DNA of 64,000 nt from a virus: IMG/VR virus record IMGVR_UViG_3300008952_002488, positions 64,001 to 128,000 of that record, one strand, 5' to 3'. The notes under the pieces were generated by a model, which saw only the letters and a list, made by a program, of their open reading frames with translations, made no database searches and was not told the DNA's origin. Positions 39,392-39,447 of this stretch are shown here, piece after piece (the stretch's first letter is position 1; each line of letters opens with the position of its first letter). A program made the translations under genes and the position numbers.

Positions 39392-39447
39392 ACCGGAGCC
39401 TAATTGGAAGGTTGAAAATGGCGGTTCGATTCCGTCCTCCGGTTTCA
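39392..39447 (+). ncRNA. tRNA-like element lacking an anticodon arm
   Basis: ACCGGAG/CTCCGGT 7-bp stem; CCT-AATTGGA-AGG D-arm; GGCGG-TTCGATT-CCGTC T-arm; 8-nt linker in place of the anticodon arm. Confidence 0.7.

Follow-up and report, generated by a model that had tools for sequence, protein, structure and literature searches.

The non-coding cassette that starts from an early promoter at 39112 in the window (the whole 64,000-nt stretch of DNA analysed here) ends in a mini-tRNA: a tRNA top half of 53 nt that has neither an anticodon arm nor an encoded CCA (Table 1). We favour, tentatively and at a little less than an even chance, the explanation that this top half was kept as a handle for RNase P and 3'-end processing, which would release RNA B, the RNA that directly precedes it. 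The window belongs to a 172-kb IMG/VR virus record, about 60% complete, from an uncultured marine T4-like phage; the + strand of the record holds nearly all genes, and five tRNAs and a tmRNA are present.

Anatomy of the mini-tRNA and its cassette

In the mini-tRNA as read from the sequence, the gap between the D-like stem and the T stem is only 8 nt (UUGAAAAU). The loop AAUUGGA follows the canonical D loop pattern (A14, R15, Y16, Y17, G18, G19, A21), and the nucleotides that make contact in the elbow of a tRNA are found as well (G18 G19; U54 U55 C56 A58; G53-C61; and A15 with U48, a pair that is possible because a U precedes the T stem), the tertiary contacts being our reading of the element against standard tRNA numbering. 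U8 and N9 are absent and the D stem is just 3 bp long, which counts against a processing handle and leaves the elbow geometry only putative. Of the features of a tRNA, the mini-tRNA has the UUCRANN T loop, G53-C61 and the stack of a 7-bp acceptor stem on a T stem of 5 bp.

Table 1. Coordinates of the mini-tRNA, of the cassette that it closes and of similar elements elsewhere (positions in the window unless a contig is named)
Feature	Location	Strand	Description
Cassette early promoter	39112-39139	+	sigma-70 type; TTGACC, 16 nt, extended -10 TGcTATTAT, AT-rich upstream tract
RNA A	39142-39281	+	long hairpin domain, 5' end of transcript
RNA B	39296-39392	+	bulged hairpin; GAACUGA 39296-39302 pairs with UCGGUUC 39382-39388; then A 39389, CCA 39390-39392
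Mini-tRNA	39392-39444	+	acceptor stem, D-like arm, 8-nt connector, T arm, discriminator U; 53 nt
Acceptor 5' strand	39392-39398	+	ACCGGAG; read from sequence
D-like arm	39399-39411	+	CCT 39399-39401, loop AATTGGA 39402-39408, AGG 39409-39411; 3-bp stem
Connector	39412-39419	+	TTGAAAAT; 8 nt
T arm	39420-39436	+	GGCGG 39420-39424, TTCGATT 39425-39431, CCGTC 39432-39436; one G-U pair
Acceptor 3' strand	39437-39443	+	CTCCGGT; 7-bp acceptor stem
Mini-tRNA 3' flank	39444-39454	+	T 39444, then TCA 39445-39447, then T7 39448-39454
Trailer	39445-39455	+	UCA + U7 run; possible termination site, this genome only
Next early promoter	39456-39483	+	drives 157-aa gene 39505-39978; 3' border of cassette
Look-alike	L083:738-798	+	46.2 bits, Rfam tRNA model
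Look-alike	L054:12851-12913	-	44.4 bits, Rfam tRNA model; own promoter
Look-alike	L121:249-305	+	IMG/VR pattern scan
Look-alike	L030:1406-1466	+	IMG/VR pattern scan

The initial annotation had described an anticodon-less mini-tRNA at 39392, and its account of the acceptor stem, the D-like arm and the T arm is confirmed by the sequence, by the Rfam alignment and by our scans. The Rfam tRNA model (RF00005) gives the element 21.5 bits, under the gathering cut-off of 29 (E = 0.085 in a search of 801 nt against 4227 Rfam families), and aligns it over model positions 1-71, in which only 3 nt stand for the 18 positions of the anticodon arm. A search at the Rfam gathering thresholds returns no tRNA match at the mini-tRNA, and ARAGORN, which had been expected to miss it, makes no call there even at relaxed (60%) thresholds. 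The fold of the mini-tRNA is retained when the 312-nt transcript is folded; the fold energy of the mini-tRNA alone is ordinary (z 0.16).

A script that looks for the combination of T loop, T stem and acceptor stem recovers the five tRNAs and the mini-tRNA from the whole 172-kb record, and a looser loop rule adds two more matches, which have TGCGA loops and long spacers. In our strict scan the T loop had to read TTCRA, the T stem to have 5 bp and to include G53-C61, and a perfect 7-bp acceptor to lie 12-34 nt upstream. With these short spacers it finds only the mini-tRNA and one true tRNA (in the wrong register) in the record, against 0.005 matches per genome in shuffled genomes. The arrangement of T arm plus acceptor stem is beyond chance, and the fact that the features of the top half and the nucleotides of the elbow are all intact speaks for a handle.

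The promoter of the cassette is near-consensus, and promoters of the same type precede neighbouring genes and the tmRNA of the phage. The + strand has no ORF of at least 40 codons between 39207 and 39504, and no ORF of the cassette is conserved, with a 1-nt indel at 39273 between copies; a hidden ORF was considered and rejected, as its 21-codon frame is broken by the indel in the other copies. With its promoter and without an ORF, the cassette is a non-coding unit whose 3' end is closed by the mini-tRNA, which is the position that the initial annotation had given it. The combination of an own strong early promoter and no conserved ORF is in favour of a handle that matures RNA.

Folded as a whole, the 312-nt cassette transcript reaches z -3.3, and RNA A has one compensatory change between copies (U-A to C-G at 39163 and 39261). 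The fold energy of RNA B is not significant (z 0.42), a point against a handle: with this fold energy and with the role of RNA B unassigned, the product that would be released is undefined. No canonical terminator is called in the trailer, and other sequence stands in its place in the three further copies of the cassette described below (L151-L153).

The promoter and leader of the cassette (39100-39160) are 77% identical to the promoter, leader and start region (23163-23221) of a 406-aa gene at 23223; that leader has a ribosome-binding-like stretch and an ATG, and the cassette reads ATA at the position of the ATG. At 24520-24600 lies an early-type promoter (TTGACA, 17 nt, TATACT), and the C-rich stretch behind it has no nearby ribosome-binding site or start codon; this region is a candidate for another non-coding unit.

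The junction between RNA B and the mini-tRNA has the form of a junction between two tRNA genes. True tRNAs in the clusters of this phage are packed as stem-N-CCA, a gap of 1-3 nt and the next tRNA. RNA B ends in a 7-bp stem, an A and a CCA, the final A of which is base 1 of the mini-tRNA, and the spacing follows the same syntax; both observations argue for a handle. CCA is encoded by all five true tRNAs and by the tmRNA, and the 3' end of the mini-tRNA, which reads U-UCA in the window and U-UCC in the other copies, does not encode it, which again favours a handle. The processing signal proposed in the initial annotation is supported indirectly by this stem-A-CCA at the 5' end of the mini-tRNA, by the spacing of true tRNAs and by the missing CCA, and the cleavage itself is predicted.

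The cassette lies 1.2-1.9 kb upstream of the tRNA cluster, and in the same genome a conserved RNA ends a few bases ahead of the first tRNA of that cluster. An upstream RNA whose 3' end is made by a tRNA thus already occurs here, which is a further point for a handle. The 5' domain of this conserved RNA (40663-40734) has ACCGGAGCC and a similar layout in common with 39369-39443, at a local score of 37 (shuffles 23 +/- 4.3, with 2 of 300 reaching it); the shared 9-mer is found in the window and in one other contig (L012) only and may therefore be chance.

Copies, relatives and lateral spread

A metagenome scan found the whole cassette on three contigs (L151, L152 and L153), where the upstream gene is a different one and a 51-aa gene lies between the cassette and the 157-aa gene. 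Between the window and L151 the nucleotide identity is 94.4% for the cassette, 79.5% for the 157-aa gene and 71% for the next gene, and the conserved RNA before the tRNA cluster is 72-83% identical between the window and L151 and L153. The cassette is absent from its place in 15 IMG/VR loci with the downstream 157-aa gene and in 4 with the upstream 160-aa gene. In 15 related records (eight taken whole, 1.14 Mb; two rated 100% complete), blastn, nhmmer and a covariance model built from the mini-tRNA element (R1) gave no homologue for any of the three RNAs of the cassette (RNA A, RNA B, mini-tRNA); the sole R1 match among these relatives (L150/L191) was rejected, as it lies in coding sequence and has no T arm. 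A full tRNA in relatives, which would mark the element as a simple deletion pseudogene, was not found: relatives have either no cassette or the same anticodon-less form. Blastn gave no match in GenBank phages, IMG/VR pattern scans (T arm plus acceptor; a 19-mer of D loop and connector; connector plus T loop; a 21-mer of RNA B) gave nothing or chance matches within a gene, scans of genome contigs found no further copies, and a protein-anchored scan found one locus that was of no use.

The absence from eight related records and the 94% identity on contigs with other neighbours, where the flanks are at 71-80%, indicate that the cassette spread laterally between phages. A comparable behaviour is known from PeSL cassettes, accessory units in the hyperplastic regions of T4-type phages that are bounded by strong sigma-70-like early promoters with an AT-rich tract (Arbiol et al. 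2010, PMC2839356) and that are gained, lost and exchanged among related phages (PMC2839356). The cassette is likewise bounded by early promoters, is present or absent in close relatives and is more similar between copies than its flanks. However, PeSL units normally consist of an ORFan and a simple G/C stem-loop, whereas this cassette consists of RNAs only and ends in a tRNA look-alike.

The differences between the two lineages are unevenly distributed. There are 14 in the 179 nt of RNA A and the 5' part of RNA B, versus a single one in the last 125 nt (39320-39444; about 99% identity), which comprise the mini-tRNA and the 3' part of RNA B (Fisher p = 0.005); this argues for a handle, although the comparison has little power, as it draws on four near-identical copies in two lineages that allow no covariation test for the mini-tRNA. 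The high identity of the copies is due in part to recent transfer. Positions 39320-39391 are invariant in all four copies, and the mini-tRNA is identical in the three other copies except for T to C at 39443. This substitution turns A1-U72, the outermost acceptor pair, into A.C in three copies, which counts against a handle. The 7-bp acceptor stem of the initial annotation is thus perfect in the window and lacks its outermost pair in the other copies. Similarly, the 3' TTCA and T-run that had been noted are present in the window, but the T-run is specific to this genome and is absent from the three other copies. Homology between the copies stops 7-8 nt past the acceptor stem, where the next promoter has its AT-rich tract.

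Relation to known tRNA-like RNAs

The closest known kin in kind are RNAC and RNAD of T4 (species 1 and 2 RNAs, rnaC/rnaD), which, like the element described here, are small stable RNAs other than tRNAs, encoded within or close to the tRNA gene region of a T4-type phage. In RNAC, as in the mini-tRNA, an acceptor-like 3' strand comes after a canonical T arm (CCGGG-UUCGAAU-CCCGG in RNAC), and RNAD, which is encoded with ...ACCA, precedes RNAC as RNA B precedes the mini-tRNA in the window and in L151 and L153. However, the acceptor-like stem of RNAC joins the ends of a 139-nt RNA with internal hairpins, whereas both strands of the mini-tRNA stem lie within 53 nt; unlike RNAC and RNAD, the mini-tRNA is found in a separate promoter-driven cassette. 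Applied to the T4 tRNA region, R1 matches only the T arm of tRNA-Thr and does not match rnaC, and there is no sequence similarity to rnaC either. The 17-nt T arm of the mini-tRNA is identical in T4 tRNA-Thr (L142:2547-2563) and in one phage tRNA-Phe (L051), which, given unrelated acceptor stems, we treat as coincidence. Descent from tRNA-Trp, tRNA-Phe or T4 tRNA-Thr was rejected, as only acceptor-type or T-arm identity was found, which is insufficient.

The tRNA-like domain of tmRNA likewise lacks an anticodon arm but has an acceptor stem, a T arm and an analogue of the D loop. Its acceptor strands are hundreds of nucleotides apart, around an ORF and pseudoknots, whereas those of the mini-tRNA are contiguous, and tmRNAs, including the one of this phage, have G3-U70 and an encoded CCA, whereas the mini-tRNA has C3-G70, no CCA and no ORF. 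The C3-G70 pair excludes tmRNA-like alanylation and, together with the contiguous acceptor strands, rules out a tmRNA fragment. The phage's own tmRNA (54098-54423, the only Rfam tmRNA match; region 54059-54445 of the window) carries the tag ANDDFEMEMAA, has its own early promoter, and is trailed by an ordinary, classical terminator hairpin, whereas the cassette has none.

By analogy, the role proposed here would be similar to that of mascRNA, at the 3' end of MALAT1, and of the tRNA-like parts of the MHV68 TMERs, which are fused to non-coding RNAs and do not decode. These are eukaryotic or herpesviral and not homologous to the mini-tRNA; mascRNA retains a short anticodon stem-loop, and in a TMER the tRNA-like part precedes its partner. 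Bacterial and phage Y RNAs of the YrlA type mimic D and T arms, and the YrlA of M. smegmatis is cut by RNase P and gains CCA (PMC4201824). YrlA has an adjacent Ro60 gene and a Ro60-binding stem at the position of the anticodon stem, whereas the mini-tRNA has no such stem. Identity with a Y RNA was rejected, since no TROVE gene was found in the 172-kb record (about 60% complete).

Other tRNA look-alikes without an anticodon arm were found by an IMG/VR pattern scan in unrelated viral contigs. We group four of them (Table 1) with the mini-tRNA by their architecture and claim no homology; L110 and L082 contain further ones. Two (L083 and L054) exceed the Rfam tRNA threshold, and none of the four has an encoded CCA. 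In L054 and L121 a 7-bp hairpin is located 4-6 nt upstream of the look-alike, and the L054 element has its own promoter, which is consistent with a handle behind a partner RNA; however, none of these look-alikes has a CCA in front, which counts against it. Because the standard tRNA finders either miss such elements or report them as ordinary tRNAs, there may be more members of the class than are counted.

A different departure from the standard tRNA is seen in an odd family of phage tRNA-Arg genes (anticodons UCU, ACG, UCG and CCU) with a re-wired D arm (L095:1356-1435 on the - strand, L030:1156-1240 on the + strand, L124, L039, L092, L100 and about 40 further loci). A 3-4-nt strand past U8-A9 pairs, with clear covariation, with a strand beyond the anticodon arm, and a D-loop-like UAAUUGGA occupies the place of the variable loop. 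To Rfam one member is a tRNA whose D arm is a 3-nt stub (38.3 bits), and ARAGORN misses most; U72 is found in about 60% of the family and CCA is absent in 64%. A plain deletion of this type was rejected as the origin of the mini-tRNA, because the order of D stem and D loop differs. The contig L121, which bears tRNAs, also has a near-threshold match to the type-P1 twister ribozyme (3628-3687, + strand; 59.2 bits against a cut-off of 67.2).

A proposed maturation handle and its alternatives

The mechanism that we propose is as follows. The coaxial helix of acceptor stem and T arm, together with the elbow of D loop and T loop, would serve as the maturation handle that ends an early non-coding RNA cassette. 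Host RNA polymerase would start at the early promoter at 39112. Bacterial RNase P recognises and cleaves minihelices of acceptor stem and T arm, which are used as model substrates, and it would treat the mini-tRNA as a pre-tRNA and cut its 5' end at 39391/39392 or 1 nt further downstream. In mascRNA and the tRNA-like RNAs of MHV68, a cut by RNase P or RNase Z at the tRNA-like element sets the end of the partner RNA. Here RNA B would thereby acquire a 3' end of the tRNA-like form stem-A-CC(A), and the non-coding RNAs would be parted from the downstream sequence; the U-run past the acceptor stem may, in this genome, also stop transcription. Through the loss of the anticodon arm and of CCA the handle would stay out of translation, with the requirements of RNase P retained. 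In this scheme we infer the cleavage at the mini-tRNA, the stability of the products and a role for RNA B.

An alternative explanation, which we consider unlikely, is that the mini-tRNA itself is the payload: a top-half decoy, made early, that would titrate a protein recognising the acceptor stem, the T arm or the elbow of tRNAs. Candidate targets are a defence enzyme that attacks the 3' ends or acceptor stems of tRNAs, SmpB, EF-Tu, the CCA-adding enzyme and RNase P, and a decoy without an anticodon would be immune to anticodon nucleases, as the initial annotation had suggested. The intact top half and elbow and the strong early promoter are compatible with this, and so are the accessory nature and lateral spread of the cassette, which are typical of counter-defence cargo, the invariance of the mini-tRNA across copies outside position 72 and the recurrence of look-alikes without an anticodon arm among unrelated phages. 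However, unlike every true tRNA here, the mini-tRNA has no encoded CCA, and a decoy for enzymes of the 3' end would need CCA addition by the host. Moreover, the cassette contains no partner protein gene, the C3-G70 pair rules out charging by AlaRS in the manner of tmRNA, there is no link to any defence system, and Ro60, SmpB and a CCA-adding enzyme were not found in the 172-kb record, which is about 60% complete. A wider form of this explanation, in which phages use top halves without an anticodon arm as a distinct class of small RNA genes, represented here by an early, mobile decoy, which titrates either a host factor or a defence enzyme and is neither decoded nor cut by anticodon nucleases, appears quite improbable.

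It is also doubtful that the mini-tRNA is the relic of a tRNA gene whose anticodon arm was lost, carried along in a recombining promoter-to-promoter cassette, where it would act at most as a generic attenuator stem-loop like those of PeSL units. It does lie immediately ahead of the -35 box that belongs to the next early promoter, a possible site for a PeSL stem-loop (PMC2839356), and the closest relatives do well without the cassette. Recent transfer alone can explain the near-identity of the copies, three copies have a mismatched outermost acceptor pair, and the T-run is not shared. The odd tRNA-Arg family, which has the same spacing of AAUUGGA..UGAAAAU and T arm, A1-U72, U73 and a missing CCA, hints at descent from a tRNA gene. 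However, none of the nucleotides specific to tRNAs has decayed (with the T loop, G53-C61, GG and A15-U48 all present), no relative has a full-length counterpart, and CCU/AGG closes the D loop in the normal order, unlike what a plain deletion of the odd tRNA-Arg type would leave. Under a relic, the exact abutment on the CCA of RNA B would be a coincidence, and attenuation could be achieved by a plain terminator hairpin such as the one behind the tmRNA.

Very unlikely, finally, is a single uncut RNA of about 165 nt in which RNA B and the mini-tRNA form two domains, comparable to T4 RNAC, and whose tRNA-like end would bring the ribosome or tRNA enzymes to RNA B. Conservation extends as a single block over 125 nt, from the 3' part of RNA B through the mini-tRNA, and T4 RNAC does combine extra hairpins and a canonical T arm in one 139-nt RNA, but no similarity to RNAC is found in sequence or with the covariance model, the 7+5-bp helix of acceptor stem and T arm with its elbow is a standard RNase P substrate, so that its remaining uncut needs explaining, and the stem-A-CCA ahead of the mini-tRNA resembles a finished 3' end.

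If the mini-tRNA were a decoy, it would be a new kind of RNA-based counter-defence. If it is a maturation handle, bacterial viruses would use the trick known from MALAT1/mascRNA and from the TMERs of gammaherpesviruses, in which RNase P gives a partner RNA a precise end, and they would do so with a look-alike pared to the minimum required by RNase P and carried in a cassette that moves between phages. This explanation would also provide a testable model for the RNAC/RNAD pair of T4.
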